A DNA stretch of 64,000 nt from an uncultured Actinomycetes bacterium (lineage in GTDB: Bacteria; Actinomycetota; UBA4738; HRBIN12): positions 609,650-673,649 of the forward strand of contig CAVZMG010000002.1 in NCBI GenBank assembly GCA_963776425.1. The letters run 5' to 3'. Positions 3,739 to 37,434 of the stretch are shown piece after piece. The notes beneath the pieces were generated by a model. That model searched no databases. It had not been told where the DNA came from and saw nothing but the letters and a program-made list of their open reading frames with translations. Made by a program: the position numbers and the translations under genes. How positions within the stretch are numbered: the first letter of the stretch is position 1; each line of letters begins with the position of its first letter.

Positions 3739-4496
3739 CGGGTCGTTCGGTGGCCGACGCCGAACCGATCCTGCCGCACAGCGAGCGTTCCTTCGCAGAG
3801 CGCGTCCGAGCACCCGACAGCTACGGACTCTTGCTCGTCCTGATCCTCGGGTCGATCATCGCGTCGGCCGCTGTCTCCGGGACGACGTTCGGCAGGATCC
3901 TCAGCCTCGTGCTCCTGGGCGGCATGCTGCTCTTCGCCATGTGGACCTCGCGGGCCGGTCCCCACCTCAGACGGATCGCCCTGGTCCTCGTGCCGACCCT
4001 CGTCGTCGTGGCGGCGGTCCTCGGATTGGTGTCGGATAGCGATCCGGCTCACGCCGTCGCGAGCGCGGTGGATGCGCTCCTCGTGTTCGCTGCGCTCATG
4101 GCTGTGTTGGGGCGCCTGAAGACCCACACGACGATCTCGTTCCAGACGGTCCTCGGCGCCCTATCGATCTACCTGCTCCTCGGACTGCTCTTCGCGACCA
4201 TCTTCTCGTTGACGGGGTCGGCTTCCGGTGACCCGTTCTTCGCGCAGGGCGCGTCCAGCGGAACCAGCGTGAACTACGTCTACTTCAGCTACGTCACGAT
4301 CTCCACGGTGGGCTACGGCGACCTGAGCGCCGCGGGCAACCTCGGGAAGATGCTCGCCGCGAGCGAAGCGTTGATCGGGCAGCTCTTCCTGGTCACCGTG
4401 GTCGCGCTCTTCGTCAGCAACCTCGGGAAGCCGACCCGTCGACCGAGGGACGAAGCGTCACCGGACGGAGGGGCGGAGGAACGCGCCTCCGACTAA
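3696..4496 (+). CDS. potassium channel family protein (TVGYGD selectivity filter)
   Basis: YFSYVTISTVGYGDLSAAG pore signature flanked by TM helices. The start is uncertain: the ORF overlaps the upstream gene by 43 nt. Confidence 0.55.
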   Translation: MALASADLALHPKLTGRSVADAEPILPHSERSFAERVRAPDSYGLLLVLILGSIIASAAVSGTTFGRILSLVLLGGMLLFAMWTSRAGPHLRRIALVLVPTLVVVAAVLGLVSDSDPAHAVASAVDALLVFAALMAVLGRLKTHTTISFQTVLGALSIYLLLGLLFATIFSLTGSASGDPFFAQGASSGTSVNYVYFSYVTISTVGYGDLSAAGNLGKMLAASEALIGQLFLVTVVALFVSNLGKPTRRPRDEASPDGGAEERASD

Positions 4497-4574
4497 GCCG
4501 CTCCAGGTTGCGGGCCGATAACGTTTGCTGCTACGAACACCCATGCGCCGCAGGCGCCCAGGCAGGAGGTCATC

Positions 4575-5975
4575 ATGGCGAAAGCCACAGACGCCACCGA
4601 GGTGAAGGACACGACGCAGCGCCAGCGGAAGGTCTCCGCCGAGGAGCGGGTCGCGCGCGGGAAGGCCGGGCGAGAGCGAGCGCCTCGCGCGAGCCACGCC
4701 GACTGGCAGCCTGCGCCCGACCGAGCGGACCTGGTGTCGCTCCTGGAGGAGCAGGCGGCGACGAGGCTCCCCGATCTGATCGCGATCAGGCACGGCCGGA
4801 TGTCGGTTTCGCCGTTCACGTTCTACCGCGGTTCGGCGATCGTGATGGCCGACGATCTGGCCGGCACACCCACCAGCGGGATCAAGGTCCAGCTCTGCGG
4901 TGATGCTCACCTGTCGAACTTCGGGGTCTTCGGCTCGCCTGAGCGCGCGATGCTGTTCGACCTGAACGACTTCGATGAGACGCTCCCTGGGCCGTGGGAG
5001 TGGGACGTGAAGCGGATGGCCGCGAGCTTCGTCGTCGGCGCTCGGGCGGTGGGCTTCCCCGCCGGCACCGGGCGGAAGGCGGCGATCGATTCCGTCGAGT
5101 CCTATCGGAGACACATGGCCGACTTCGCGCAGATGCGCGACCTCGATGTCTGGTACTCCCACATCACTTCGGAAGACATCCTGGCGGCGACGACAACAGA
5201 GCAGATGCGCAAGCGCACGGCAACGAACATGGCCAAGGCCAGGACGAAAGACAGCCTCCAGGCGTTCGCCAAGCTCACGACCGTGGTCGACGGCAAGCCG
5301 CGGATCGTGGACGATCCCCCGCTCGTCGTCCGTATCGACCCGAACGACCTGCCGGTCGACGTCGACACGTTGCTCAATCTGTACCGCCGAACCCTGCAGG
5401 ACGACCGCCGTCATCTGCTGGAGCAGTATGAAGTCGTTGACGTCGCGCGGAAGGTCGTGGGTGTCGGCAGCGTCGGTACCCGCTGCTTCATCGTCCTCCT
5501 CGCCGGTCGCGACGATGCCGATCCTCTCTTCCTCCAGGTGAAGGAGGCACAGAGCTCGGTGCTCGAACGGCATCTCCCCAAGAGTCGCTACCGGAACCAC
5601 GGGCAACGCGTGGTAGCGGGCCAGCGCTTCATGCAGGCGTCGAGCGACATCTTCCTGGGATGGATCCGGGGTCCGGGAGAGGGGATCGACTTCTACTGGC
5701 GCCAGCTCCGGGACATGAAGGGCTCCGCGGTCGTCGAAGAGATGGTCCCCGAGGGGTACCGAGCCTACGCCGGGCTGTGTGGCTGGGCGCTCGCCCGCGC
5801 GCACGCCCGTTCGGGCGACCGGATCGCGATCAGTGCCTACCTGGGGAAGAGCGACGCATTCGCGAGGGCGATCGCGGACTTCTCCGAGACCTATGCCGAC
5901 CAGACCGAGCGGGATCACCAGGTGATGCTCGATGCGATCGCGAGCGGGAAGATCCAGGCCGAGTCCGGGCTCTGA
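4575..5975 (+). CDS. DUF2252 domain protein
   Basis: 466 aa; sequence pattern (SPFTFYRGSAIVMADDLA...QLCGDAHLSNFG) recalled as DUF2252. Confidence 0.5.
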   Translation: MAKATDATEVKDTTQRQRKVSAEERVARGKAGRERAPRASHADWQPAPDRADLVSLLEEQAATRLPDLIAIRHGRMSVSPFTFYRGSAIVMADDLAGTPTSGIKVQLCGDAHLSNFGVFGSPERAMLFDLNDFDETLPGPWEWDVKRMAASFVVGARAVGFPAGTGRKAAIDSVESYRRHMADFAQMRDLDVWYSHITSEDILAATTTEQMRKRTATNMAKARTKDSLQAFAKLTTVVDGKPRIVDDPPLVVRIDPNDLPVDVDTLLNLYRRTLQDDRRHLLEQYEVVDVARKVVGVGSVGTRCFIVLLAGRDDADPLFLQVKEAQSSVLERHLPKSRYRNHGQRVVAGQRFMQASSDIFLGWIRGPGEGIDFYWRQLRDMKGSAVVEEMVPEGYRAYAGLCGWALARAHARSGDRIAISAYLGKSDAFARAIADFSETYADQTERDHQVMLDAIASGKIQAESGL

Positions 5976-8715: not shown

Positions 8716-8738
8716 GCGGCCGGTAGCATAGGCGGTCG

Positions 8739-9773
8739 ATGGGTTGGTACCCGGCCGTCGGTCGCCCGCTGTTCTTCGCTCTCCCGCCCGAGACAGCCCA
8801 TCGCCTCGCCGGCACGCTGCTAGGACTCCCGCTGCCGTGGCGACGGATCGGTCACGCCGCCGACGATGTCCGGCTGGAGGCCGAGCTCGCAGGCATCTCG
8901 CTCCGCAACCCGATCGGCCTTGCTGCTGGGTTCGACAAGACCTGCGCGCATCTCGACGCCTTGGGTGCCCTCGGGTTCGGGTACGTGGTCGGCGGCACCA
9001 TCACCCGGGCGCCTCGGTCCGGGAACCCGAAGCCCAGGATCGTCCGCTACCCGGCGAAGGGCTCGATGACCAACGCGATGGGGCTGCCGAACCCCGGCGC
9101 CGACCGCGCCGAGCAGATCCTCGCCGCGTCATCTCGCCGCACGGCTCCGCGCGTGATCAGCATCGCGGACGAGGCGCTCGACGACGCGCTCGTCGCGGTC
9201 GAACGGCTCGCGCCGCATGCCGACGCGATCGAGCTGAACGCGAGCTGCCCGAACGTCTCTTGGGGTCGGGACCGAGACAACGAGTCACATCTGCGGGACC
9301 TGGTCGGTGGTATCCGGGAACGCACCGGCGTGCCGCTCTTCGTGAAGCTCCCGCCGTTCGCGACCGCGGTGGAGCGGGACGTGATCCTCGCGCTCGCGGC
9401 GATCGCGCAGGGGGCGGGGGCTGAGGGCCTCACGTGCTCCAACACGCGGTTGGTCGGGGATCGAGGTCTCTCGGTCGGGGCCGGCGGGTTGTCGGGTCGC
9501 GCGTTGTGGGACCGGACGCCCTCGATCGTGGCCGACGTCCGGGCCGCGACGGGGGGCGCCATGGCGATCAACGCTTGCGGCGGGATCTCGACCTGGGAAG
9601 ACGTGCTGGCGTGCCTGGAGGTCGGGGCCACGACCGTGCAGCTCTACTCCGCGCTGATCTACGAGGGGCCGGGCTTGGTGGGCACACTCACCCGCGGGCT
9701 GGCTCGGGCGCTCGGGGAGCGCGGCACCTCGGTGCGCGCGCTCGCGGGAGCGGCCGAGCCAGCTGCAGGGTGA
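8739..9773 (+). CDS. pyrD: dihydroorotate dehydrogenase (quinone), class 2
   Basis: NPIGLAAGFDK and GGTITRAPRSGNPKPRIVR motifs; divergent from pyrE. Confidence 0.8.
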   Translation: MGWYPAVGRPLFFALPPETAHRLAGTLLGLPLPWRRIGHAADDVRLEAELAGISLRNPIGLAAGFDKTCAHLDALGALGFGYVVGGTITRAPRSGNPKPRIVRYPAKGSMTNAMGLPNPGADRAEQILAASSRRTAPRVISIADEALDDALVAVERLAPHADAIELNASCPNVSWGRDRDNESHLRDLVGGIRERTGVPLFVKLPPFATAVERDVILALAAIAQGAGAEGLTCSNTRLVGDRGLSVGAGGLSGRALWDRTPSIVADVRAATGGAMAINACGGISTWEDVLACLEVGATTVQLYSALIYEGPGLVGTLTRGLARALGERGTSVRALAGAAEPAAG

Positions 9774-9795
9774 AGGATCGTGCGCCGGCGAGACG

Positions 9796-10176
9796 TTAGA
9801 TCTGCATCATCGCCTTGTTCTTCATGTCCTCGTACTGCTCGGCGGTGATGTCGCCGGAATCGCGGAGCTTCGCGAGCTTCGCGACCTCATCGGCCGGCGA
9901 GTAGCCCTGGACCCGGCGCTGCGCCTCCGCTGCCTGCTCCATCATCTGCTTGTCCTGCTCCGTCATCTTCGGGCGAGCGATGATGTAGATCAGCGCACCC
10001 AAGAACGGCACGATGAAGATCAGGATGATCCAGAACGCCTTCATCCCACCGTGGATGTCGTTCCTCCGGAAGATGTCGGCGAAGATCGTGATGAAGATCC
10101 AGATCGCCATGAACCAGAAGAAGAAGACGAGCATCGCCCACATCACGCTGCCCAGGTTCCATTCCGTTGCCAGCAT
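9796..10176 (-). CDS. small membrane protein with PLD-nuclease N-terminal (PLDc_N) TM domain and C-terminal SHOCT domain
   Basis: Two TM helices followed by AKLAKLRDSGDITAEQYEDMKNKAM (SHOCT-like). GC is visibly lower than in the neighbouring genes. Confidence 0.55.
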   Translation of the reverse strand: MLATEWNLGSVMWAMLVFFFWFMAIWIFITIFADIFRRNDIHGGMKAFWIILIFIVPFLGALIYIIARPKMTEQDKQMMEQAAEAQRRVQGYSPADEVAKLAKLRDSGDITAEQYEDMKNKAMMQI

Positions 10177-10277
10177 GCATGCCCCTTTCAGCTGAACCTG
10201 CGGGACGTCCCGCTCGGGTCCCCCTCGGTGACCCGGGGCGCAACGCTAGCAGGATGTGGCCCCCAGCGTAACCCGGG

Positions 10278-23950: not shown

Positions 23951-24011
23951 CAGAACGCGAGCCTACCCGGCCCTCCGCCCGCTGCCGCCTATCCAGGATG
24001 AGCGACAGCGA

Positions 24012-24086
<75 letters not shown>

Positions 24087-24174
24087 GCGATCCACCCCGG
24101 CGACCGAGTCTAGCAACGCGCTCTCGGCGGCCTCGCCTCATGGGTGCGCCGCCCACGCCCGCTATCCTCCGGGT

Positions 24175-24585
24175 ATGTCCGAGAGTGACGAGATCCCCGC
24201 GCCGCGTGCCCCGGTCGTCCTGTTGGTGGACGACGACCCCGTGATCACCCGGCTCCTCGAGGTCAACTTCCGGCTCGAGGGCTTCAAGGTGGGGATCGCA
24301 TCGCGGGGCGACGCCGCGTTGGAGCGGGCGCGGGCCGTGCCGCCGGACGCGATCGTCCTCGACGTCATGCTGCCCGGTCTCGGTGGGTTCGAGGTCGCCC
24401 GGCAGATGCGGCGGATCCCCAACCTCGCCGATGTGCCGGTGGTCTTCCTCACCGCGCGGCCCCCGGAGGATCAGGAGGCGGAGGCGAGCGACCTCGGTGA
24501 GATCGACTTCATCGCGAAGCCCTTCGAGCCGGCGGACATCGTCGCCCTCGTTCGGCGACGGGTCGGAGAACGAGACGCGACGTGA
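24175..24585 (+). CDS. response regulator receiver-domain protein (single-domain, CheY-like)
   Basis: VLLVDDDP...DAIVLDVMLPGLGGFEV...FLTA...KPF receiver motifs; 136 aa. Confidence 0.65.
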   Translation: MSESDEIPAPRAPVVLLVDDDPVITRLLEVNFRLEGFKVGIASRGDAALERARAVPPDAIVLDVMLPGLGGFEVARQMRRIPNLADVPVVFLTARPPEDQEAEASDLGEIDFIAKPFEPADIVALVRRRVGERDAT

Positions 24586-26255
24586 TCGAAGAACGGCTGC
24601 TGGCGCTGATCCGCGCGGCGCTCGAGGCGGCCGCCCCCGGTCTGGGGATCGACGGGGAGCTGCCCGAACCCGAGCTGCTCGCTCCGAAGCAGAAGGATCA
24701 CGGCGACTTCGCCACGAACGTGGCACTCGCGCTCGCGTCCAGGGCCGGCCGCAACCCGCGTGAGGTCGCCGAGGCGATCCGAGCGGCGTTCCCCGACGCG
24801 GCGTTCCTCGCGCGGGTCGAGGTGGCCGGACCCGGATTCCTCAACCTGTTCCTCACCCATGAGTGGCTCCACGACGCCCTCCGCGATGTGATCGAACGAG
24901 GCGCCGAGTTCGGGCGCTCGGCGCCCAACGGGAAGCGTGTGCAGGTCGAGTTCGTGAGCGCCAACCCGACTGGCCCTTTGACGGTGGCCCACGCACGGAA
25001 CGCCGCGATCGGTGACGCACTCGCCCGGCTCCTGGAGCGCACGGGCTGGTCGGTGGAGCGCGAGTATTACTTCAACGACGCCGGCGGTCAGATGGATCGG
25101 TTCGGCCTATCGGTCGAGGCGCGGTTCCTCCAAGAGCTCGGCCGGCAAGCCGAGGTGCCCGAGGATGGCTATCACGGCGCGTACGTCGCGGATATCGCTC
25201 GCGACATCCTCCGAGCGGAAGGGCCGGAACTCGCGGAGCTTCCCGAGCCGGACCGGCTGGTCCGTTTCCGCGATCTGGGGGCGGAACGCGCTATGGCGTC
25301 GATCCAGGCGACGCTCGATCGCTTCCACGTCCGGTTCGACGTCTATCGATCCGAGAGCGAACTGGCCGATGCCGGCGAGATCGACGAGGCGATCGACCGG
25401 CTGCGGAAGGCCGGGTGCATCTACGAGGCCGAGGGTGCCGTCTGGTTCCGTTCGACGGCCTTCGGCGACGACAAGGACCGGGTCGTGATCCGTTCGAACG
25501 GCGTCCACACGTACTTCGCGGCCGACTGTGCGTATGTCATCGACAAATTCTCTCGAGGGTTCGACCACCTCGTGTACGTCTGGGGCGCTGACCATCACGG
25601 CGACATCGCGCGGGTGAAGGGTGCAGCCGAAGCGCTGGGGTACGAGCCCGACGCGGTGGAGCTGCTGATCCACCAATGGGTGGCGTTCCTGCGTGAAGGC
25701 GTCCCGGTCCCCATGGGTAAGCGCAGCGGCAACTTCATCACGCTCGACCAGCTGATCGACGAGGTCGGGACCGATGCCGCCCGGTTCACGCTCCTCCAGT
25801 ATTCGAGCGACTCCGCGTTGAACTTCGACATCGAACAGGTGAAGCAGCAGACGATGGAGAACCCGGTCTACTACGTCCAGTACGGCCACGCGCGGATCGC
25901 GTCGATCCTCCGGAAGGCGGATGCGGAGGGAGTGGCGATGGCTCCGTTCTCCGATGCCGACCTCGCGCTCCTCGAGCACGAGGCCGAGCTGGAGCTCCTC
26001 CGGGGGATCGAGGAGGTTCCGGGTCAGTTGCGACTGGCCGCAGACCAGCGCGCCCCGCATCGGATCACGCATGCGGCGCAAGGGCTCGCGGCGCGGTTCC
26101 ACCGCTTCTACAGCGAATGCCGCGTCGTCTCCGAGGACGAAGCGCTGACCCAGGCCCGCCTGTGGCTGTGCGCCGGGACGAAGCAGGCCCTGGCGAGCCT
26201 CCTCGGCGTGCTCGGGGTATCGGCGCCCGAGTCGATGGAGCGTGAGGATGGATGA
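24582..26255 (+). CDS. argS: arginine--tRNA ligase
   Basis: 557 aa; HIGH-like motif SANPTGPLTVAHARN and the C-terminal anticodon-binding domain. Confidence 0.9.
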   Translation: MIEERLLALIRAALEAAAPGLGIDGELPEPELLAPKQKDHGDFATNVALALASRAGRNPREVAEAIRAAFPDAAFLARVEVAGPGFLNLFLTHEWLHDALRDVIERGAEFGRSAPNGKRVQVEFVSANPTGPLTVAHARNAAIGDALARLLERTGWSVEREYYFNDAGGQMDRFGLSVEARFLQELGRQAEVPEDGYHGAYVADIARDILRAEGPELAELPEPDRLVRFRDLGAERAMASIQATLDRFHVRFDVYRSESELADAGEIDEAIDRLRKAGCIYEAEGAVWFRSTAFGDDKDRVVIRSNGVHTYFAADCAYVIDKFSRGFDHLVYVWGADHHGDIARVKGAAEALGYEPDAVELLIHQWVAFLREGVPVPMGKRSGNFITLDQLIDEVGTDAARFTLLQYSSDSALNFDIEQVKQQTMENPVYYVQYGHARIASILRKADAEGVAMAPFSDADLALLEHEAELELLRGIEEVPGQLRLAADQRAPHRITHAAQGLAARFHRFYSECRVVSEDEALTQARLWLCAGTKQALASLLGVLGVSAPESMEREDG

Positions 26256-26787
26256 GCCGCGGGTCGCGCCTCCCGCGGGGATCGCCCTGCGGCCCGCGCG
26301 GCCGCGCGACGCCGGCTCGTTCCAAACGTTCTGGCGCGGGATCGTCTCGGAGGGGCGCTACGTGCGGAGCGAAGAGGTCAGCACGCCCGCCCGGGTCTAC
26401 CGCTCCCGGTTCCGCCGCTCGTGGACCGAACAGGAGGCGCAGATCGTCGCGCTGGACGGCGAACGTGTGGTCGGGCACATCTACGTGCAGCGCGAGCAGC
26501 ACCCGGTGACGCAACACGTCGCCACCATCGGCCTTGCCGTGGCCGAGGATCATCGTGGGCGGGGGATCGGCGCGGCGCTCATGACCGAAGCGTTCCGCTG
26601 GAGCAGGAGCGTCGGCGTCGAGAAGATCGTGCTGTCCGTCTATCCCTACAACGAGGCCGCGATCGCGCTCTACCGGCGGTTCGGGTTCGTGGAGGAAGGC
26701 CGCCTCGTGGGACACTCGAAGAAGTCTTCGGGGTATGAAGACGAGCTCCTACTGTCGGCGTGGATCGGGGAGGACCGGGCCTCGTGA
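26242..26787 (+). CDS. GNAT family N-acetyltransferase
   Basis: RGRGIGAALMTEAF...ALYRRFGF motif. Occupies the position taken by lysA in the Mtb argS-lysA-hom arrangement. Confidence 0.65.
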   Translation: MRMDEPRVAPPAGIALRPARPRDAGSFQTFWRGIVSEGRYVRSEEVSTPARVYRSRFRRSWTEQEAQIVALDGERVVGHIYVQREQHPVTQHVATIGLAVAEDHRGRGIGAALMTEAFRWSRSVGVEKIVLSVYPYNEAAIALYRRFGFVEEGRLVGHSKKSSGYEDELLLSAWIGEDRAS

Positions 26788-28073
26788 GCGAGCGGATCGT
26801 GCGGGTCGGGCTCCTGGGATGCGGCACCGTCGGATCGGCGGTCGTGCGCATCGTGCACGACCACGGCGACGACATCGCCGCCCGCACCGGCTGCAGATTG
26901 GAGATCGCGCGTATCGCGGTCCGCGACCCCGGACGCAGCCGAGATGTGCCGTTGGATCCCGCCGTGTTCACCGGGGACGCCGAGGCGGTGGTCGACGACC
27001 CGACGATCGATGTCGTGTGCGAGCTGATGGGTGGGATAGAACCCGCGCGATCGCTGATCCTGCGAGCGTTCGCCGCCGGGAAGCCGGTCGTTACCGGGAA
27101 CAAGGAGCTGCTGGCGAACTCCGGCAAGGAGCTGTTCGACGCGTCCGATGCCGCGGAGGTCGACCTCGCGTTCGAAGCGGCCGTCGCCGGCGGGATCCCC
27201 TTGATCCGCCCTCTCAAAGGATCCCTTGTGGGGGAGCGAGTGTCACGGCTGCTGGGCATCGTGAACGGGACGACGAACTACATCTTGACGCAGATGTCCG
27301 AGCACGGGTGGTCGTTCGCGGACGCGCTCGCTGAAGCGCAACGATTGGGGTATGCCGAAGCGGATCCAGCGGCGGACGTGGATGGCTCGGACGCTGCGGC
27401 GAAGTGCGCCATCCTGGCGTCGATCGCGTTCAACACGCGGGTCGTCGCCGCCGACGTCTTCCGAGAAGGCATCACGGACATCCAGGCCCAGGACATCGCG
27501 GACGCCGCCCGGCTCGGCTACGTGGTCAAGCTGCTCGCGATCGCCGAACTGGAGGACGGTGAGGTGTCCGCCCGCGTCCATCCGGCGATGGTGCCGATCG
27601 CGCATCCTCTCGCGTCGGTCCGTGACGCGTTCAACGCCGTCTTCGTCGAAGGGGAGCGCGTCGGCCAACTGATGTTCTACGGGCGCGGGGCCGGGGGTGA
27701 TCCGACCGCCACGGCGGTCGTGGGAGATCTCGTCGACGTGGCGCGCAATCGGCTGGCCGGCACCCGGGGGATCGGTTGCACGTGCGTGTACGAGCGTCGG
27801 ATCCGTTCGATGGATGACACCCATGGCCAGTACTACCTCAACCTGCACGTCGAAGACCGGCCGGGCGTGCTTGCTGAGATCGCGGATCACTTCGGCCGCA
27901 ACGGCGTGTCGATCGAACGCGTCTGGCAGGAGGGGTTCGGCGACGAGGCGGCGCTCGTCTTCGTCACGCACCGAGCGCAGGAAGGCGCGTTCCAGGAGAC
28001 GCTCCAGCAGCTTCGCGAGCTCTCGGCCGTTCGCGCGGTCTCGAGCGTGCTGCGCGTGGAGGGCGAAGAGTGA
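26760..28073 (+). CDS. hom: homoserine dehydrogenase
   Basis: [15 protein letters not shown]-binding N-terminus and a C-terminal ACT domain. The start may be the GTG near 26784. Confidence 0.85.
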
Positions 28074-29143
28074 GCGAAGGCAGGGGGGAGGCGAGACCCC
28101 AATGGCGCGGCGTCATCGAGGAATACCGACGCCGGCTCCCCGTGTCCGACGCGACCCCGGTGGTGTCGTTGCAAGAAGGTGGAACGCCGCTCGTGCGCTC
28201 CGGCCCGCTCTCCGACGAGACCGGCTGCGACGTCTGGCTGAAGTTCGAGGGGGCGAACCCGACGGGCTCGTTCAAGGATCGTGGCATGACGCTCGCCATC
28301 AGCAAGGCCGTCGAGGAAGGCGCGAAGGCCGTCGTGTGCGCCTCGACCGGCAACACGTCGGCAAGCGCCGCCGCCTATGCCGCCAAGGCCGGATTGACCT
28401 GCGCCGTGCTCGTGCCGAAAGGCAAGATCGCTATGGGCAAGATGGCGCAGACGCTCATCCACGGTGCGCGCGTCCTTGAGGTCGACGGGAACTTCGACGC
28501 GTCGTTGGAACTTGCCAAGGATCTGGCGGAACGCTACCCGGTGACGCTCGTCAACTCCGTCAACCCGTTCCGGCTGCAAGGACAGAAGACCGCGGCGTTC
28601 GAGATCTGCGACGCGCTTGGTCGCGCGCCCGACATCCATTGTGTCCCGGTCGGCAACGCAGGGAACATCTCCAGCCACTGGCTCGGATATTCGGAGTACC
28701 TCGCGGACGGGGTGATCGCCGAGCCGCCGCAGCTGTTCGGGTTCCAGGCTCAGGGGGCCGCCCCGATCGTGCTCGGCGCACCCGTGAAAGACCCGCAGAC
28801 GATCGCCACCGCGATCAGGATCGGCAACCCGGCGTCCTGGGACAAGGCGGTCGCCGCGGCCACCGAGTCCGAAGGTGCCATCTCGGCGGTCACCGATCGC
28901 GAGATCCTGGCCGCCTACCGCCGGGTCGCCCGCGAAGGGCTCTTCGCGGAGCCGGCGTCGGCCGCGAGCGTCGCAGGGCTACTCCAGCTCCACGCGAAGG
29001 GCACGCTCCCCAGCCGGGCCACCGTGGTCTGCGTCCTGACGGGTCATGGATTGAAGGATCCGGAGTGGGCCATCTCCGGGGCCCCGCATCCCGCCGCGGT
29101 TCCCGCGGATCCGGTCGCGGTCGCCACCGAGCTGGGACTGTAG
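28070..29143 (+). CDS. thrC: threonine synthase
   Basis: PLP motif [14 protein letters not shown]. Confidence 0.85.
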
Positions 29144-29145
29144 AG

Positions 29146-30003
29146 GTGCGGCTCACCGCCCGCGTCCCGGCGACGTCGGCCAACCTCGGCCCGGGGTTCG
29201 ACTGCTTCGGCCTCGCGCTGGATCTGTGGAACGACGTCGTGATCGACACGGAGGGTGATCCGGGCGTCACGTGGGAAGGTGAGGGCGCCGACGAGCTCCC
29301 GACCGACGGCTCCGACCTGGTGAGCCGAGCGATGGCGCACGCTGCGCGAGCGGGCGGCGCTCCGCTCCCGCCGCTCGCGCTCCGTGGCGTGAACCGGATA
29401 CCGCTCGAGCGTGGGTTGGGTTCGTCGGCCGCGGCCACCGTGGTCGGGATCGCGGTCGCCGATCGCCTGCTGGGCCTGGGGTTCGAGCCGGAGGAGACGC
29501 TCGAGCTGGCCGGCGAACTGGAGGGTCACCCGGACAACGCCGCCGCTGCGATCGCGGGCGGGTTCACGTTGGCGTTCGGAGACGGGGTGATCCGCCTGGA
29601 CGCGCATCCGTCGCTCAACCCGATCGCGCTGATCCCGCTCGACATCCGGTTGTCGACCAGCGAAGCGCGCGCGGCGCTCCTCGACGTGGTGGGACGTCCC
29701 GAGGCCGTCTTCAACGCCGGTCACGCGGCGGCAACGGTCGTTGCGCTCACATCGGAGCCGGCGCTGCTGACGCAGACGCTCCGGGATCGGCTCCATCAGG
29801 AAGCGCGGCTCGCGCTCGTGCCCGAGGTGAAGACGGTGTTCGACGACCTCACGCGGGCGGGCATCCCCGTCTGCGTGAGCGGTGCGGGACCCACGCTCCT
29901 CGCCTTCGAGCTCCCGGGGACTCCGGTGCCCGACCTCGGAGAGCGGTGGCGTATCCTCCGGCTTGCCGTGGCGCCGACCGGTGTCGGTGTCGGAGAGGCG
30001 TGA
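29146..30003 (+). CDS. thrB: homoserine kinase
   Basis: GHMP kinase motifs PATSANLGPGFDCFGLAL and PLERGLGSSAA. GTG start sits directly after the thrC stop. Confidence 0.8.
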   Translation: MRLTARVPATSANLGPGFDCFGLALDLWNDVVIDTEGDPGVTWEGEGADELPTDGSDLVSRAMAHAARAGGAPLPPLALRGVNRIPLERGLGSSAAATVVGIAVADRLLGLGFEPEETLELAGELEGHPDNAAAAIAGGFTLAFGDGVIRLDAHPSLNPIALIPLDIRLSTSEARAALLDVVGRPEAVFNAGHAAATVVALTSEPALLTQTLRDRLHQEARLALVPEVKTVFDDLTRAGIPVCVSGAGPTLLAFELPGTPVPDLGERWRILRLAVAPTGVGVGEA

Positions 30004-30006
30004 GCC

Positions 30007-30798
30007 ATGACCGAACTTGAGGGCAGGGCGGCGCTGATCACCGGCGGCACGACCGGTATCGGGTTCGCGATCGCCGAAGCGTTCCTTCGCGAGGGGGCGC
30101 GGGTCGTGATCACCGGTCGCGACACGGAGCTCGGGGCGCAGGCGGAGTCCAGGCTCCGCGCGTGGGGTGAGGCTCGGTTCCTGAAGGCGGACGCCGCCGA
30201 TCCGGCTCAGGTGACCGATTCGGTCGACCGCGCCGTTACGCTGCTCGGTGGGATCGACGTACTGGTGAACAACGCCGGCATCGGCGTCCTCGCGACGCCG
30301 CTCGAAACACCGCTCGGTGACTACGATCGCGTCATGTCGGTGAACGTCAGAGGGTGTCTGCTCTACGCGCAGGCATGTATGTCGTTCCTGGAAGCCCGGA
30401 ACGGAGTGATGATCCATATCTCTTCCGACGCAGCGGTCATGGGCCAGGTTGAGATCGGGATCTACTCCGTCTCGAAGGCCGCTGTGAACATGCTGTCGGC
30501 GATGCTGGCGATCGAATGCGGTCGACGAGGCGTCCGGTCGAACGTGATCGCGCCGGGCGACATCGAGCCCGGGATGCGGCACTTCGGTGTGCCCGGAGCC
30601 CCAGATCGCCCCGAGGACGACCCGGCCGGGTGGGACCGGCCCCCGCTCGGGCGGATCGGCCGCGCCGACGACGTGGCGCAGGCGGCCGTCTACCTCGCGA
30701 GCGACCGAGCGGCCTTCGTGAACGGGGTGACCCTCCTCGTGGATGGCGGCATGCGCGCCGGCTTCAACACGGCCACGCCCGCACCGGAACCCGACTAG
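30007..30798 (+). CDS. SDR family oxidoreductase
   Basis: TGGTTGIGFAIA Rossmann motif, NNAG, and the YSVSKAA catalytic motif. Confidence 0.75.
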   Translation: MTELEGRAALITGGTTGIGFAIAEAFLREGARVVITGRDTELGAQAESRLRAWGEARFLKADAADPAQVTDSVDRAVTLLGGIDVLVNNAGIGVLATPLETPLGDYDRVMSVNVRGCLLYAQACMSFLEARNGVMIHISSDAAVMGQVEIGIYSVSKAAVNMLSAMLAIECGRRGVRSNVIAPGDIEPGMRHFGVPGAPDRPEDDPAGWDRPPLGRIGRADDVAQAAVYLASDRAAFVNGVTLLVDGGMRAGFNTATPAPEPD

Positions 30799-30825
30799 CC
30801 CATCTCCCGGCCTTACACTGCCGGT

Positions 30826-31611
30826 GTGGTCACGATCGCCCACATCTCCGATCCGCACGTCGGGTCGCCGTACTTCGTCCCCAACCTGATGAACCGTGTC
30901 ATCGCCGAGCTCAACGAGCTGCGACCCGATGCTGTGGTCGTCTCCGGAGATCTGACGAGCGAGGGCTTCCGTCAGGAGTACAAGAGCTGGGTCGCCTACG
31001 CGGAGCGGATCGAGGCGCCTGTCTACACCGTGCCCGGCAACCACGATTCCCGCAACGTCGGCTACCTGCATTTCGAGGATCTGATCGGTCCGCGCAACTG
31101 GTCGGTCGACATCGGCGGCGTGCGCGTGGTCGGCATGGACTCGTCGGAACCCGATCAGAACGAAGGCAAGATCGGGCGTGGTCACTATGAGTGGATCTCC
31201 CGCGAGTTCCTCCAGCCAGCGGACCTGAAGGTCTTCGTGCTCCACCATCACCTGCTGCCGATCCCCGGCACCGGCCGAGAGCGAAGCACGGTGATGGACG
31301 CGGGCGACCTCTTGGAGGTGCTCGTGCATGCCGGGGTCGATGTGGTGCTCTCGGGACACAAGCATGTGCCGTACGTCTGGCACCTCGAAGACCTCTACAT
31401 CGCGAACGCCGGCACCGTTTCGTCGCTGCGGGTGCGCGGCTACACGAAGCCTTGCTACAACGTGTTGGAGTTCGCGGGAGGCGAGGTGAAGATCCACCGG
31501 AAGTTCCCGTTCGGGGACGATCAGGTCATGACGCATTTCTCGCTCGCGGGGACCGAGCTCCATCGGGAGCAGGAGCGCTCTGTGCAGGAACGCGTCGTCC
31601 CGGTCGAATAG
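30826..31611 (+). CDS. metallophosphoesterase (calcineurin-like)
   Basis: ISDPHVG, GDLTSEG, GNHD and GHKH metal-binding motifs. Confidence 0.7.
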   Translation: MVTIAHISDPHVGSPYFVPNLMNRVIAELNELRPDAVVVSGDLTSEGFRQEYKSWVAYAERIEAPVYTVPGNHDSRNVGYLHFEDLIGPRNWSVDIGGVRVVGMDSSEPDQNEGKIGRGHYEWISREFLQPADLKVFVLHHHLLPIPGTGRERSTVMDAGDLLEVLVHAGVDVVLSGHKHVPYVWHLEDLYIANAGTVSSLRVRGYTKPCYNVLEFAGGEVKIHRKFPFGDDQVMTHFSLAGTELHREQERSVQERVVPVE

Positions 31612-31670
31612 CGATACGCCGACGCCCAACCATCACATCCGCACACGACGAGAGAGGGGTCTCCCGAGCC

Positions 31671-33017
31671 ATGCGGGTCGTCGTCCTGGTGGACGGAGAG
31701 CACTATCCACCGGTCACACGGTGGGGGATCGAGACTGCCCGCGAGCGCGGTTACGACGTGGCGGGCGCGCTCCTGGTCGGTGGGACCGAGAAGCTAGATC
31801 CCGGTTCCACACCCGACTTCGGCGTCTCGACACGGGCAGCCGGCCCAGATCGGATGGCGGCCCTCGCGGCAGCGATCGCGGAGTTCTCGCCCGAGGCCGT
31901 CCTCGATCTCTCCGACGAACCCGTGCTCGGGTATCGGGAGCGTATGGAGCTCGCGGCCGTCGCGCTCATCCATCGGCTGCCCTACATCGGTGCTGACTTC
32001 CGGCTGGACCCACCGATCGCTGGACCACCGCTCGTGGGGCCCACGCTCGCTGTGATCGGGACCGGCAAGCGGACCGGCAAGACGGCGATCGCCGGGGAGG
32101 TTGCGCGTCTCGCGGACCGGCGGGGTCTCGCTCCCGTCGTCGTGGCGATGGGTCGAGGAGGGCCTGAGGATCCGCAGGTCGCGGAGGCGGGATCCGTGGA
32201 TGTTGCCGGGCTGGTCGAACGGGTCCGCCGAGGGGAGCACGCGGCGTCGGACTACCTCGAGGATGCGATCACCACCGGCGTGACGACGATCGGTGCGCGA
32301 CGCGTCGGGGGAGGGCTCGCCGGCGCACCGTTCGTCACCAACGTGCGGGAGGCGGCCGAGCTCGCGGCGGCCCGGGACCCCGGGGTCGTGATCTTGGAGG
32401 GGAGCGGCGCCTCGGTGCCTTCGATCCCGTGGGATGCGGGCGTGTTGGTGGTGCCGGCGTCGGCGCCCCCCGAATACCTGGGCGGCTACCTCGGTCCGTT
32501 CCGGCTCTTGTTGTCGGACCTGGTGGTTGTTACCATGGCAGCCGGCCCAGTCACTGGGCATGAGAACCTCTCCGCACTTCGCTCCCACGTCCGCCGCTTC
32601 CTCGATGACCCGCGGCAGATCATCCTGACCGACTTCATCCCGGTACCGCTGGAAGACGTGAAGGGCGAACGGGTGTTCTTCACCACGACGGCACCCGGGG
32701 CCGTGGCTGCGAGGCAGGTCGAACATCTCGAGGCCACGCACGGATGCACGGTGGTGGGGTGGAGCGCCCGGCTGGCCGAACGGGCCGGTCTGGCGGAGGA
32801 CTTGGAGGGAGCCGAGGGGTTCGACATCCTCCTGACGGAGCTGAAGGCTGCCGCCGTCGACATCGGCGTCGAGCGTGCCCTCGCCCGCGGAGCGGGGGTC
32901 GTGTTCGTCGACAACCGGGCGATCGTGGTCGAGGGCGACACGGATCTCGACACGGCGCTCGGTCGGGTGATCGACCTGGCCATCGAACGAGGCCGAGGGA
33001 CGAGGGAGCAAGCGTGA
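31671..33017 (+). CDS. cpgS: cyclic 2,3-diphosphoglycerate synthetase-like protein
   Basis: 448 aa. N-terminus MRVVVLVDGEHYPPV and the overall pattern match my recollection of the methanogen cDPGS family. ATG at 31671 is preceded by GAGAGAGGGG. The 608-aa ORF from 31191 is an arginine-rich artefactual extension. Confidence 0.55.
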   Translation: MRVVVLVDGEHYPPVTRWGIETARERGYDVAGALLVGGTEKLDPGSTPDFGVSTRAAGPDRMAALAAAIAEFSPEAVLDLSDEPVLGYRERMELAAVALIHRLPYIGADFRLDPPIAGPPLVGPTLAVIGTGKRTGKTAIAGEVARLADRRGLAPVVVAMGRGGPEDPQVAEAGSVDVAGLVERVRRGEHAASDYLEDAITTGVTTIGARRVGGGLAGAPFVTNVREAAELAAARDPGVVILEGSGASVPSIPWDAGVLVVPASAPPEYLGGYLGPFRLLLSDLVVVTMAAGPVTGHENLSALRSHVRRFLDDPRQIILTDFIPVPLEDVKGERVFFTTTAPGAVAARQVEHLEATHGCTVVGWSARLAERAGLAEDLEGAEGFDILLTELKAAAVDIGVERALARGAGVVFVDNRAIVVEGDTDLDTALGRVIDLAIERGRGTREQA

Positions 33018-33994
33018 TGGAGAAGGGAACCAAGACCCCCCATATCGTGATCTCGGATCGCGAGCCGGGGCTGCCGTATTCCAAGGGACTCATGGCGTCC
33101 CAGGTGATGGTGACCGGTCTGTCGCCCTTCCGGGCCTACCAGGTGGCGGAGGAGATCGAGGACCGCTTGCGCGAGCGGGGCTCCACGTCCCTCACGACGC
33201 ACGAACTCTCCGAGCTCGCACTCGAGGTCCTGACGCAGGTCGCCGGCGACCGGTACGCCAAGAACTTCCTACGGTGGCGGGAGGTCGAGAAGCTGGACGT
33301 GCCTATCGTGATCCTGATCGGTGGCGCGACCGGCGTCGGGAAGTCCACGATCGCCACGCAGCTCGCGGCGCGCCTCGGCATCGTGCGGTTCGTCGCGACC
33401 GATGCGATCCGCGAGGTCATGCGCTCGATGTTCTCGCCCGAGCTGATGCCCACCCTGCACACGTCGTCGTTCGAGGCCGACGCCGCGCTCCGCGAGCCAC
33501 CGACCCGTGAGGTCGATCCGTTGATCGTCGGCTTCCGCGAGCAGACCGCCGCGGTCGCCGTGGGGATCCACGCGCTGATCGAGCGAGCGGCCCTCGAGGG
33601 AACGAGCATCATCATCGAGGGTGCCCACGTCGTGCCCGGGTTCTTCGACCTGGAGGCGTTCGCGGGGCGGATCCTGGCGGTGCCGTTCGTCATCTCCGTC
33701 GACGACGAGGAACGTCATCGCTCGCACTTCGGCGCGCGGGAAGACTCCATCGCCGCACGCCCGGCGCAGCGGTACGCCAACGGCTTCGCGAACATCCGCC
33801 GGCTCCAGACGTACGTGAAGAGCCAGGCACTGTCCCACGACGTGCCGGTGATCCCGAACTACGGCTTCGATCAGTCGATCGCTGCGGTGATCGACCTGGT
33901 GATGGAACGGGCCACGGCGCGTGCCGAGGAGGTCGCCGACGGCGCCCACCCCGCCGAGCCGGCCCAGCCCGCACTGAAAGGACGGACGACATGA
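33017..33994 (+). CDS. 2-phosphoglycerate kinase-like protein
   Basis: Walker A GGATGVGKSTIA preceded by a ~100-aa N-terminal domain, the architecture of archaeal 2PGK. The start overlaps the cpgS stop (GTGATG, with GAGGGAG as RBS). Confidence 0.55.
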   Translation: MEKGTKTPHIVISDREPGLPYSKGLMASQVMVTGLSPFRAYQVAEEIEDRLRERGSTSLTTHELSELALEVLTQVAGDRYAKNFLRWREVEKLDVPIVILIGGATGVGKSTIATQLAARLGIVRFVATDAIREVMRSMFSPELMPTLHTSSFEADAALREPPTREVDPLIVGFREQTAAVAVGIHALIERAALEGTSIIIEGAHVVPGFFDLEAFAGRILAVPFVISVDDEERHRSHFGAREDSIAARPAQRYANGFANIRRLQTYVKSQALSHDVPVIPNYGFDQSIAAVIDLVMERATARAEEVADGAHPAEPAQPALKGRTT

Positions 33995-34653
33995 GGCTGT
34001 TCCTCGACACCGCGAGCATCGAGGAGATCCGCGAGATCAACCGCTGGGGCGTCCTGAAGGGTGTCACGACGAATCCGTCGCTCGTGGCGAAAGAGAACGA
34101 GGACCCCGACGCGGTATGGAAGCTGATCCTGGACGAGGTCGACGGCGACATCTCGCTCGAGACCACTGCGCCGCAGGCGGACGCGATGTACCAGGAAGGG
34201 CTCCGGCTCGCTGAGAAGTCGCCGAAAGCGGTCGTGAAGGTGCCGATGACACCCGACGGGCTTCAGTGCGGCAAGCGACTGACCGATGAGGGGATACGGA
34301 TCAACGTGACGCTGGTGTTCTCACCGGCGCAGGCGATCCTCGCCGCCGAGATCGGCGCGTACATCGTCTCTCCGTTCCTCGGACGCCTCGATGACGTCGG
34401 GAGCGATGGCATGTACATGCTCCGGCAGATCTGCGAGGTCTTCCAGATGCAGGGATACGAAACCAACGTCTTAGCGGCATCGCTCCGCCATCCGATGCAC
34501 GTGATCGATGCAGCGCTCGCGGGCGCCGACATCGCGACGATGCCGTACGACGTCTTCACCAAGCTGGTGAAGCATCCACTGACCGACAGCGGTCTGGAGA
34601 AGTTCCAGGCCGATTGGACGAAGCTCCAGAACGAGTTGAAGGGAGAGGCATAG
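33991..34653 (+). CDS. tal: transaldolase / fructose-6-phosphate aldolase (short TalC/Fsa type)
   Basis: 220 aa; [11 protein letters not shown]...GVTTNPSL...VKVP motifs with a Schiff-base lysine context. Confidence 0.8.
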
Positions 34654-34657
34654 CCTC

Positions 34658-36259
34658 ATGGATACGACGATGGACCGCAGCGCCCTCGAGGGGAAATTGA
34701 TCCCCGAGCTGCAACAGATCGCGCAGGGCATGGGTATCGAAGGTGCTCAGAAGCTGCGCAAGGCCGGCCTGATCGACGCGATCGTGTCGAACGCCGACGG
34801 CGGCTCGCCCGCCCCGACGCCGACGAGCGAGCCCGCGTCCGTTCAGACGACGGAGGTCGACGCGCCGTCGAACGGCGAGCTGAAGACCGAGGATCGCCCT
34901 CGCGACGACCGTCCACGCGACGACCGTCCACGCGACGACCGTCCACGCGACGACCGTCCACGCGATCAGCGTCCCCAGGGTGATCGCCCACAAGGCGAGC
35001 GCTCCGAGGTCCGCGAGGATCGCGCCGACGGTCAGGGGGGACGTGAACGACGCCAGCGTCCCTCGCGCGAGGATCGTCGGCGGACCCGGGAGGAACGTCG
35101 GATCCGCGAGGAGGCCGAGCGGGCGGAGGAGATGCAGAACGCACCGGTCCTGACCGGATTGCTCGACATCCTGCCCGAGGGCTATGGGTTCCTGCGGACC
35201 TCTGGCTATCTGCCGGGTCCCGAGGACATCTATGTCTCCCTGTCGCAGGTGCGCCGGTTCGCCCTGCGGAAGGGCGACACCGTGACCGGCAAGGTGCGCC
35301 GTCCGAAGGACAGCGAGAAGTACTTCGCGTTGCTCGAGATCGAGACCGTCTGCGGGATGGACGTCGAGGCGGCGCGAGCGCGTGCGAACTTCGACAAGCT
35401 CACCCCGCTGTTCCCGGATGAGCGGTTCCGCCTGGAGAACGGCCCTCTCGAGGTGGCGCAGCGGATCATCGACATGATCGCACCGATCGGAAAGGGTCAG
35501 CGTGGCATGGTGGTCTCGCCACCGAAGGCCGGGAAGACGACCATCCTGAAGCAGATCGCGAACGGCATCCTGGCCTCGAGCCCGGAGACGCACGTGATCG
35601 TGCTGTTGGTCGACGAGCGTCCCGAGGAAGTCACCGACTGGCAGCGGACCGTCCAGGCCGCCGAAGTCGTGTACTCCACGTTCGACAAGCCCGCTGATCA
35701 GCACATCCAGATCACGGAGCTGGTTCTGGAGCGTGCCCGCCGGCTGGCGGAGATGGGTCAGGACGTGGCGATCCTCCTCGACAACATCACCCGGCTCGCT
35801 CGCGCGTACAACCTGGCGGCGCCGGCCTCCGGCAAGATCTTGTCGGGTGGTGTCGACTCCACGGCCCTCTACCCGCCGAAGCGGTTCTTCGGCGCTGCGA
35901 GGAACCTCGAGGAAGGCGGATCGCTCACGATCATCGCGAACGCGCTCGTCGAGACCGGGTCCCGGATGGACGAGGTCATCTTCGAGGAATTCAAGGGAAC
36001 CGGGAACATGGAGCTGCGCCTGGATCGTTCACTGGCAGAGAAGCGGTTGTTCCCGGCGATCAACGTCGACGCCTCGAGCACCCGGAAGGAAGAGCTCTTG
36101 ATGCCGGTCGAAGAGCTGGCGCTCGTCGTCAAGCTCCGCCGCGTGCTCCACGCACTGGAGCCCGGTGCCGCGCTCGAGCTCCTCACGGACAAGATCCGCG
36201 CCACGAAGTCGAACGAGCAGTTCCTGAAGGAGATCGCGAAGGCGCCTTCTGGCAGCTAG
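34658..36259 (+). CDS. rho: transcription termination factor Rho with R/D-rich N-terminal insertion
   Basis: RNA-binding and RecA-like ATPase domains ([20 protein letters not shown]). The N-terminal insertion is a (RDDRP)n repeat, as in actinobacterial Rho. Confidence 0.9.
34901..34960 (+). repeat. 4 x 15-bp perfect tandem repeat (cgcgacgaccgtcca) inside rho, encoding (RDDRP)4
   Basis: Read directly in the sequence; a fifth degenerate unit follows. Confidence 0.8.
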
Positions 36260-36290
36260 TACGCTGGCGCGCCCCGAGAGGAGAACCACG

Positions 36291-36509
36291 ATGAAGCAAG
36301 GCATCCACCCGGACTACCAGATCGCGAACGTTCACTGCTCTTGCGGCAACGCGTTCCAGACCCGGTCCACGGTCAGCGAGATCCGTTCCGACATCTGCTC
36401 GAACTGCCACCCCTTCTACACGGGCAAGCAGAAGCTCATGGACGCCGGTGGACGTGTCGAGCGCTTCCAGCGCCGCTACGCGAAGACGCAGCAGGGTGCA
36501 GGCAACTGA
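36291..36509 (+). CDS. rpmE: 50S ribosomal protein L31
   Basis: 72 aa; the Zn-ribbon type CxxC...CxxC motif (CSCGN...[12 protein letters not shown]). Confidence 0.9.
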
Positions 36510-36525
36510 GCCTGCGTCCTGATCC

Positions 36526-37434
36526 GTGAGCGAACCCGCACCGGCTCCGCCGGCGACACACCTCTACGGCGGACAGGCGGTCGTGGAGGGCGTCATGATG
36601 CGTGGCGCCGACCACTGGGCGGTCGCCGTCCGGAGGTCCGACGGGGACATCCACGTCGAATCGCACGACATCGACTCGATCGCCAGGCGGCATCCCGTGT
36701 TCGCCAAGCCGTTCCTGCGCGGGATGATCGTCCTCGGTCAATCGCTCGCGATCGGCACACGCGCTCTCCTGATCGCGACGAATCAGTCGGTGGAAGAAGA
36801 TGAGCAGCTCACCTCGCGCCAGGTCGGTCTCGCGCTCGCCCTCGCGCTGGTGGCGTTCACCGCTGTCTTCGTCCTCGGCCCGACCCTCCTGTTCGCGTGG
36901 GTCCAGCATCGCGTCGGCGACGGGGTGCTGACGAACGTGCTGGAAGGACTCTTCCGCGTCGCACTCTTCGTGGGCTATCTCTGGCTGATCGGCAGGACGA
37001 AGGACATCCACCGGGTTTTCGAATATCACGGCGCCGAACACAAGACGATCGCGGCGTACGAGCACGGTGAGCCGCTCGACCCCGAGCACGTGGATCGGCA
37101 TTCGACCCTGCATATCCGGTGCGGCACCAACTTCCTGATCATCGTCATGATCATCACCATCTTCGTCTTCACGCTGTTCGGGACACCCGGGATCTGGTGG
37201 CGCATCGGCTCACGGGTACTCGCGATCCCCGTCATCGCCGGCCTCGCGTACGAGGCGCTGCGGTTGGGGGCGAGGTTCCACGGTTCGCTGGTCATGCGGG
37301 CGCTGATGGCCCCCGGGCTCTGGCTCCAACACATCACCACGCAGCCACCCGACCGGAGCCAGATCCAGGTGGCGATCGCCTCGTTCGGCGAGGTCCTTCG
37401 CCGCGAAGCCGAGGCCGCCGGCACCTCCAGCTGA
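36526..37434 (+). CDS. DUF1385 (YqhQ-like) membrane protein
   Basis: 302 aa; contains the EYHGAEHKTI motif and TM segments. This family often sits beside rpmE/prfA. Confidence 0.5.
   Translation: MSEPAPAPPATHLYGGQAVVEGVMMRGADHWAVAVRRSDGDIHVESHDIDSIARRHPVFAKPFLRGMIVLGQSLAIGTRALLIATNQSVEEDEQLTSRQVGLALALALVAFTAVFVLGPTLLFAWVQHRVGDGVLTNVLEGLFRVALFVGYLWLIGRTKDIHRVFEYHGAEHKTIAAYEHGEPLDPEHVDRHSTLHIRCGTNFLIIVMIITIFVFTLFGTPGIWWRIGSRVLAIPVIAGLAYEALRLGARFHGSLVMRALMAPGLWLQHITTQPPDRSQIQVAIASFGEVLRREAEAAGTSS

Follow-up and report, generated by a model that had tools for sequence, protein, structure and literature searches.

Overlapping genes for a predicted cyclic 2,3-diphosphoglycerate synthetase and a 2-phosphoglycerate kinase-like protein are conserved between thrB and rho in uncultured Actinomycetota

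In archaea, cyclic 2,3-diphosphoglycerate (cDPG) is formed by a two-step mechanism (PMC10690619), and its second enzyme, cDPG synthetase (cDPGS), is represented in the PDB by the Methanothermus fervidus protein (8ORU/8ORK) and by a Thermococcales-type protein (9SXB). In Pyrococcus yayanosii, the genes for cDPGS and for the first enzyme, 2-phosphoglycerate kinase (2PGK), are adjacent and co-regulated (PMC4890121), and in Methanothermobacter a cDPG hydrolase activity has been documented (PMC1224877); in the literature searched, no gene has been assigned to this activity, which was described in the 1990s. Here we analyse a comparable pair of genes in a 64,000-nucleotide stretch of DNA (hereafter the window; contig CAVZMG010000002.1, positions 609,650 to 673,649, assembly GCA_963776425.1) from an uncultured Actinomycetes bacterium. 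Between thrB and rho, this window carries cpgS (31671..33017), encoding a predicted cDPGS of 448 aa, and an overlapping 2PGK-like gene (2pgk; 33017..33994), encoding a protein of 325 aa; the neighbouring genes of this interval, the motifs given below, and the bordering thrB and rho lie, like these two, on the forward (+) strand. It is likely that the two genes constitute the bacterial counterpart of the cDPG pathway with its two ATP-consuming steps, a reading supported by the conserved active site of the synthetase, by the translational coupling of the genes, by the occurrence of the pair in unrelated genomic contexts, and by its links to two kinds of phosphoglycerate mutase.

An earlier note, made from the letters of this DNA, had proposed that the 448-aa protein is a cDPG synthetase, and this identity is borne out by a full-length PDB match, by the predicted fold and by the active-site residues. 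Specifically, phmmer aligned residues 2-442 of CpgS with residues 5-456 of the M. fervidus chain (8ORU/8ORK, E=6e-93), a match that covers both domains and identifies the protein with cDPGS and not with a different ATP-grasp or ligase family. The match to 9SXB, an archaeal protein unlike that of the window, is nearly as strong (E=8.7e-90). The AlphaFold model of CpgS (pLDDT 90, pTM 0.89) was superimposed by Foldseek on ligand-bound 8ORU with TM scores of 0.94/0.92, an rmsd of 2.1 Å and 37% identity, whereas the remaining folds reached a TM of at most 0.41, LpxK among them at 0.40. Both the PDB alignment and the predicted model cover the N-terminal domain, and the corresponding Pfam family, PF27272 (CpgS_N), is precomputed for the identical public protein and for all of its best 120 homologues. 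Local Pfam and NCBIfam scans gave no match, which was not counted against membership because the libraries used contain no cDPGS model. The window protein therefore shares with the M. fervidus enzyme its length class (448 vs 460 aa), its two-domain fold and the Walker A sequence GTGKRxGKT, and differs from it in overall sequence (37-38% identity) and in its high-GC bacterial host.

The residues that contact substrate, Mg and ATP in M. fervidus cDPGS are also largely retained. CpgS begins MRVVVLVDGEHYPPV; in its N-terminal VVLVDGEHYPPV motif (31680..31715), four residues (D8, G9, E10 and H11) reach 90% conservation or more when 57 diverse family members are aligned. In the GGTEK motif (31779..31793), E40/K41 align with M. 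fervidus E45/K46, which reach the 2,3-diphosphoglycerate (2,3-DPG) site of the partner subunit (PMC10690619). The Walker A motif GTGKRTGKT (aa 130-138; 32058..32084) provides K133/R134, the equivalents of K145 and R146, which bind 2,3-DPG, and K137/T138, the equivalents of K149 and T150, which bind phosphate and Mg (PMC10690619). Further downstream, D194 in HAASDYLEDA (32238..32267) aligns with the Mg ligand D208, T340 corresponds to the likewise retained T353, and E390/K392 in LTELKAAAVD (32832..32861) align with E404/K406, which contribute to ATP contact and charge shielding (PMC10690619). Across the same 57 members K133, R134, G136, E390 and K392 are invariant, and K137/T138, together with most of the remaining ligand-residue equivalents, are at least 90% conserved. 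Collectively, sequence and predicted structure identify the 448-aa protein as a clear cDPG synthetase.

The same features bear on another identity for this protein, that of an ArcE-type arginine synthetase (citrulline + NH3 + ATP -> arginine + ADP + Pi). ArcE (TK2200; PMC11032458, 2024) shares the P-loop superfamily of cDPGS, to which it is distantly related, and likewise couples ATP/ADP+Pi to a condensation; its homologues are reported to be widespread in bacteria, including Actinomycetota (PMC11032458), and related genes have been annotated only as 'predicted GTPase'. However, the authors describe the similarity between ArcE and cDPGS as 'low' (PMC11032458), whereas the full-length alignment of CpgS with M. 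fervidus cDPGS gives 37-38% identity and the structural match a TM of 0.94; ArcE, which is set apart here by its published description, acts on a different substrate and has its own arcB/arcC neighbourhood. CpgS retains the 2,3-DPG-binding residues and is coupled to a 2PGK-like kinase, and no ornithine transcarbamoylase or carbamate kinase gene lies near cpgS in the window. On these grounds an ArcE identity was rejected, and we regard it as exceedingly improbable.

The protein encoded by 2pgk, which the earlier note had called 2PGK-like, is indeed closest to the 2PGK models, scoring above the sister families although below the curated cut-offs. NF003259 aligns over profile positions 5-298 of 306 with 295.8 bits and NF008994 gives 291.1 bits, roughly double what the best of the sister models reaches (PRK12338, 143 bits; mevalonate-3-phosphate 5-kinase, 70 bits). 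The P-loop GGATGVGKST (aa 102-111; 33320..33349) is invariant in 30 homologues and is preceded by an N-terminal domain of ~95 aa that resembles an ATP-cone, a weak match in Pfam (23.4 bits vs a cut-off of 25.8). Full-length alignment, P-loop, a cDPGS partner and, to the extent of the weak Pfam match, an ATP-cone-like domain link the protein to M. fervidus 2PGK and the NCBIfam models. Structure prediction (pLDDT 79) gave a core resembling NMP and gluconate kinases, for which Foldseek returned only generic NMP, gluconate and adenylate kinases from the PDB; no solved structure of the 2PGK family was found there, hence no template for the substrate residues. Family similarity and genomic context together point to a putative 2PGK. 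Homologues of this kinase are named 2-phosphoglycerate kinase at JGI and AAA family ATPase or hypothetical protein at NCBI, an example of a gene under-called by the NCBI threshold although its context is decisive.

That context begins with the overlap of the two genes: the stop codon of cpgS (TGA, 33015-33017) and the start codon of 2pgk (ATG, 33017-33019) share one base (TGATG). This overlap, like the gene coordinates and motifs in the earlier note, was found as given there. To place the pair, a GTDB scan of one genome per species with a 10-sequence alignment as query recovered a CpgS relative in at least 577 species, and neighbourhoods were counted in the closest 80 of these, each denominator being the number of loci evaluable for that neighbour. 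A 2PGK-like kinase gene lies immediately downstream of cpgS in 76 of 77 loci. The two genes are also adjacent in Streptomyces, Acidimicrobiia and Cloacimonadota, and the pairing of the two presumed cDPG enzymes is thereby upheld.

In Streptomyces sp. WAC 01529 (CP029617.1, ~154-156 kb; locus L086, 8001-10270), an isolated, overlapping pair of cpgS and a 2PGK-like gene (WP_125510701.1 and its downstream neighbour) lies in a chromosome arm, close to the chromosome end; genes for a 4HFCP synthase-like protein and for an LCM methyltransferase are found nearby. S. anatolicus is a further cultured carrier. Acidimicrobiia show the order hom-thrC-ApgM-like-cpgS-kinase-FSA-rho. The ApgM-type gene, resembling cofactor-independent phosphoglycerate mutases, stands directly upstream of cpgS in two Acidimicrobiia metagenome-assembled genomes (MAGs; L090, 4782-5969, and L084, 6628-7974), and in L090 it stands where the window has thrB. 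Its product could feed 2-phosphoglycerate to the pathway, or could serve as a non-orthologous homoserine kinase. A second kind of mutase is linked to cpgS in a Bipolaricaulota MAG (L089, 6001-8908), in which cpgS overlaps the gene for a bacterial 2,3-bisphosphoglycerate-independent phosphoglycerate mutase (iPGM) and has no 2PGK-like gene next to it. In a Cloacimonadota MAG (L091), cpgS, the kinase gene and a CBS-domain gene are followed by a 499-aa tandem double metallophosphoesterase (8733-10232); a UshA-like Metallophos/5'-nucleotidase gene (4260-5888) lies upstream of the pair at the same locus.

In the window, a calcineurin-type metallophosphoesterase (MPE) gene (30826..31611; Pfam Metallophos, 8.6e-22) precedes cpgS, and an MPE gene is found immediately upstream of cpgS in 65 of 72 related loci. 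The protein carries the motifs DxH (aa 9-11), GD (41-43), GNHD (71-74) and GHxH (177-180), and its nearest solved relatives are the phosphodiesterases Rv0805 and GpdQ (E~1e-12). With these class III phosphodiesterases it has in common the metallophosphoesterase motifs and a size of ~260-280 aa; it differs from them in that the similarity is limited to E~1e-12 and in that the window subfamily travels with cpgS-2pgk. The Cloacimonadota tandem protein matches the window MPE at 35% identity (E=3.5e-44), and each of its two domains is a homologue of it. Because of its place in the Rv0805/GpdQ branch, its association with the pair in two phyla and the existence of a cDPG hydrolase activity to which the literature searched assigns no gene, the MPE is proposed from its gene neighbourhood as a candidate cDPG or 2,3-DPG hydrolase. 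An Eremiobacterota MAG also has a Metallophos gene close to cpgS, but with no detectable kinship to the window MPE, and it was not counted as support.

The pathway proposed for these bacteria would follow the archaeal one. The kinase would phosphorylate the glycolytic intermediate 2-phosphoglycerate to 2,3-DPG, and the synthetase would then use a second ATP, moving its γ-phosphate onto the 2-phosphate of 2,3-DPG; attack by the 3-phosphate would close the ring with release of phosphate, leaving the intramolecular pyrophosphate of cDPG. The upstream MPE may hydrolyse cDPG or 2,3-DPG and thus complete a cycle of synthesis and breakdown. In such a scheme cDPG would accumulate in carrier cells and could act as an anionic solute and as a reserve of phosphate, carbon or energy, or as a stress protectant, a role that need not be specific to high temperature.

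Several observations weigh against this proposal. The nucleotide-contacting E305 of M. fervidus cDPGS is an alanine (A291) in the window protein, and the kinase remains under the curated equivalog cut-offs of both models (NF003259, 295.8 vs 343; NF008994, 291.1 vs 603) in a family that includes other specificities, i.e., mevalonate-3-phosphate 5-kinase (NCBIfam) and plant LPA1 (literature). The role of the MPE is read from a gene neighbourhood whose conservation could for the most part reflect shared ancestry; moreover, Streptomyces has the cpgS-kinase pair without an MPE, and in Methanothermobacter and Methanobacterium (Methanobacteriales) cpgS stands apart from both kinase and MPE genes, unlike in the window, where it is joined to the kinase gene and preceded by the MPE gene in a predicted operon. 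Co-transcription of the block is in turn suggested by intergenic spacing (-4 to 59 bases). Finally, cDPG has been stated to be found only in hyperthermophilic methanogens (PMC10690619), and its production by the bacterial members of the family is a prediction from sequence and modelled structure.

Some of these observations would also suit a pathway of diverged specificity, in which kinase and synthetase act on another phosphorylated hydroxy-acid or polyol and yield a different cyclic pyrophosphate. The sub-threshold kinase score within a family of mixed specificities, the modest identity of the synthetase to the archaeal enzyme and the loss of E305 are all compatible with such a substrate. 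Nevertheless, the 2,3-DPG contacts (E45, K145 and R146) and the Mg contacts (T150 and D208) are kept and are invariant or nearly so family-wide, and two independent phosphoglycerate mutase neighbours, in Bipolaricaulota and in Acidimicrobiia, argue for a phosphoglycerate. A substrate other than 2,3-DPG is thus considered unlikely, and the cDPG pathway is retained as the favoured interpretation of the pair.

The position of the pair in the genome is itself conserved. All of the closest 80 species are uncultured Actinomycetota MAGs, mostly from soil or groundwater according to their record titles, with one from a hot spring. The set includes Ca. Aquicultor, which retains the order of the block at 45% identity. 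Besides the MPE and kinase genes that flank cpgS, a gene for an FSA/TalC-type transaldolase follows the kinase gene in 69 of 71 loci, rho follows the transaldolase gene in 59 of 64, and hom-thrC-thrB lies upstream in most. The block MPE-cpgS-2pgk-FSA-rho is therefore present in nearly all of these species, and its cpgS-kinase-FSA-rho portion recurs in Acidimicrobiia. In the window, the block genes have GC contents of 0.62-0.70 and third-position values (GC3) of 0.82-0.90, and the flanking hom, thrC, thrB and rho genes have GC3 values of 0.85-0.86; block and flanks are alike in GC and GC3. No flanking mobility genes, integrase, bordering tRNA or meaningful direct repeats were found at the borders of the block. 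Because the block is conserved in nearly all relatives, matches its flanks in composition and lacks features of mobility, it is no recent insertion but has long belonged to the thr-rho-prfA housekeeping locus and been inherited vertically with it.

This result contradicts the suggestion in the earlier note that the genes are an accessory module inserted at this junction. A fuller form of that suggestion would hold that a thermophile recently acquired a five-gene cassette of archaeal derivation between thrB and rho. It draws on the first characterisation of the family in archaea, on the Streptomyces pair, which, lying in a variable chromosome arm, suggests that the genes do get transferred, and on Mycobacterium tuberculosis, in which rho follows thrB directly. 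However, the same junction is found down to 45% identity in related species, composition and borders bear no trace of an insertion, and one of the five genes, that of the SDR-family oxidoreductase, is not conserved with the block. A neighbour-joining tree of ~60 family members was star-like and did not separate a bacterial from an archaeal origin; a recent archaeal origin is not shown by it, and no direction of transfer is claimed. Recent acquisition is thus very unlikely and largely refuted by synteny. The pair is also ubiquitous at this locus in related actinobacteria, one half of a refuting condition set in the earlier note; its other half, a different known function, did not emerge. The P. 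yayanosii pair offers a contrast to this vertically inherited arrangement, since it lies not in a housekeeping locus but in a regulated genomic cluster that includes CRISPR-cas genes and what looks like an ancient integrated element.

In the window, the gene order is argS-GNAT-hom-thrC-thrB-(SDR-MPE-cpgS-2pgk-fsa)-rho-rpmE-DUF1385-DivIVA-like-prfA-prmC, rpmE being a small open reading frame; the window contains no rRNA. The interval between thrB (homoserine kinase; 29140..30003; TIGR00191, 195 bits, cut-off 168), the upstream boundary of the block, and rho (34658..36259; TIGR00767, 600 bits), its downstream boundary, is filled by five genes of the same direction. Their GC3 values and the thousands of homologues that each of them has indicate that they are real genes and not chance open reading frames. 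The first is that of the SDR oxidoreductase (30007..30798; Pfam adh_short_C2, 1.4e-54; NF005559, 219.8 bits, cut-off 215), which starts 3 bases after the end of thrB. The last, encoding the 220-aa FSA/TalC-type transaldolase (33991..34653; TIGR00875, 266 bits, cut-off 246), shares 4 bases (ATGA) with 2pgk, and 4 bases separate its end from rho. Given the spacing throughout the hom-to-rho string, the block is probably co-transcribed with the thr-rho-prfA housekeeping locus; a promoter and terminator scan of positions 24000-37000 gave nothing either way.

The two outermost genes of the block differ in their standing. The SDR had been taken as part of the unit, but only 12 of 69 evaluable related loci have an SDR gene at that position; other relatives carry unrelated genes there, e.g., one for a CvpA/trypsin-like protease on the opposite strand. 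The SDR is therefore a variable neighbour outside the conserved module. The transaldolase gene does belong to the conserved block, and no link between the two has been established.

Some further features of the locus were recorded. The argS-hom interval of the window holds a GNAT gene alone (26242-26787, 181 aa), as it does in the closest relative (L006); in several other relatives (L001, 3197-5068; L003, 666-2558; L004, 827-2647) this interval carries a fusion of lysA (diaminopimelate decarboxylase) and GNAT of ~600-630 aa. Within rho, at positions 34888-34977, a 15-nt unit is perfectly repeated in tandem (4.3 copies, 100% identity), flanked on either side by degenerate copies; it encodes RPRDD repeats in the N-terminal insertion of Rho, and the perfection of the copies suggests recent expansion or contraction. 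Inside cpgS, at 32003-32052, just upstream of the region encoding Walker A, another 15-nt tandem repeat is weak (3.2 copies, 75% matches) and probably compositional.

The synthetase family as a whole is compact: 1.84 billion representatives yielded 236 clusters (50% identity) at E<=1e-30. Beyond the actinobacterial clade described above, its members also occur in Eremiobacterota and Gaiellales, and archaeal members are found in Methanobacteriales, including the mesophilic genera Methanobacterium and Methanobrevibacter, in Thermococcus and in Asgard archaea. In Methanothermobacter and Methanobacterium paludis (L087 and L088, 7400-7990), a UPF0058 gene lies upstream of cpgS and a RimB-like gene downstream, with a thermosome gene nearby; UPF0058-cpgS-RimB-like is a conserved archaeal neighbourhood, distinct from the bacterial one. 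At another locus (L081, 5782-7995), a GDE_N_bis and MGH1-like glycoside hydrolase gene lies immediately upstream of cpgS; its family is that of mannosylglycerate/glucosylglycerate hydrolases, so its product would be another enzyme of a glycerate-derived solute. The earlier description of such a system as unusual in bacteria is true of what has been published; in the databases, however, JGI and NCBI already name the bacterial homologues.

The physiological purpose of the pathway was considered with an IVYWREL amino-acid temperature index, calculated with the same script for all loci. The control loci behaved sensibly (Streptomyces, 29 °C; Methanothermobacter, 63 °C; hot-spring relative, 82 °C), and the window gave a nominal ~49 °C; the index was judged not decisive because relatives known from soil MAGs reach 59-67 °C when scored over this housekeeping locus. 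The mesophilic carriers of the pathway, and the habitats under which the relatives are labelled, speak against tying it strictly to thermophily.

These observations also bear on the possibility that the same chemistry serves another purpose, 2,3-DPG and cDPG being kept at a low level as intermediate, phosphate or energy buffer, or source of a cofactor (e.g., for 2,3-DPG-dependent phosphoglycerate mutase), and not as bulk solute. Thermoprotection would then be irrelevant, and in its chemistry this possibility overlaps with the pathway favoured here. It would suit the place of the block within a housekeeping locus and beside a transaldolase gene, the soil and groundwater labels of the relatives, and the mesophilic carriers Streptomyces, Methanobacterium and Methanobrevibacter. 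In line with it, a storage function has been proposed in Methanothermobacter (PMC1224877), and the M. fervidus synthetase is reversible (PMC10690619). Set against this are the lean of the temperature index towards thermophiles, with nominal values of 49-67 °C for the window and its relatives vs 29 °C for the Streptomyces locus, which leaves room for a role connected with heat, and the fact that sequence does not separate bulk from trace production. A purely non-solute role appears possible but doubtful. Under the favoured reading, in which cDPG itself is the product, a more far-reaching proposal can be made, namely that cDPG, far from being peculiar to hyperthermophilic methanogens, belongs to the core metabolism of a large actinobacterial radiation of soil and groundwater, most of it uncultured, and is made by a three-gene housekeeping module in which the MPE would be the cDPG hydrolase of a cycle that buffers phosphate, carbon and energy; this we put forward as speculation, more readily doubted than believed.

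The enzyme families discussed here are known, and public pipelines already name their bacterial homologues; in the literature searched, no description was found of a bacterial cDPG pathway, of its fixation in the thr-rho locus of an actinobacterial radiation or of its MPE partner. No new mechanism is shown, but bacterial cDPG and a candidate for its hydrolase are now directly testable, and the cultured, mesophilic Streptomyces sp. WAC 01529 provides a tractable organism. If cDPG is really made by these bacteria, the MPE gene would be a concrete candidate for the cDPG hydrolase activity that has no assigned gene in the literature searched, and production of cDPG could turn to mesophilic enzymes and to bacteria that are easily grown. 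The literature treats cDPG as a heat-protective extremolyte of industrial interest, whereas the genes point wider; were the compound indeed made by their carriers, its biological role would need rethinking.

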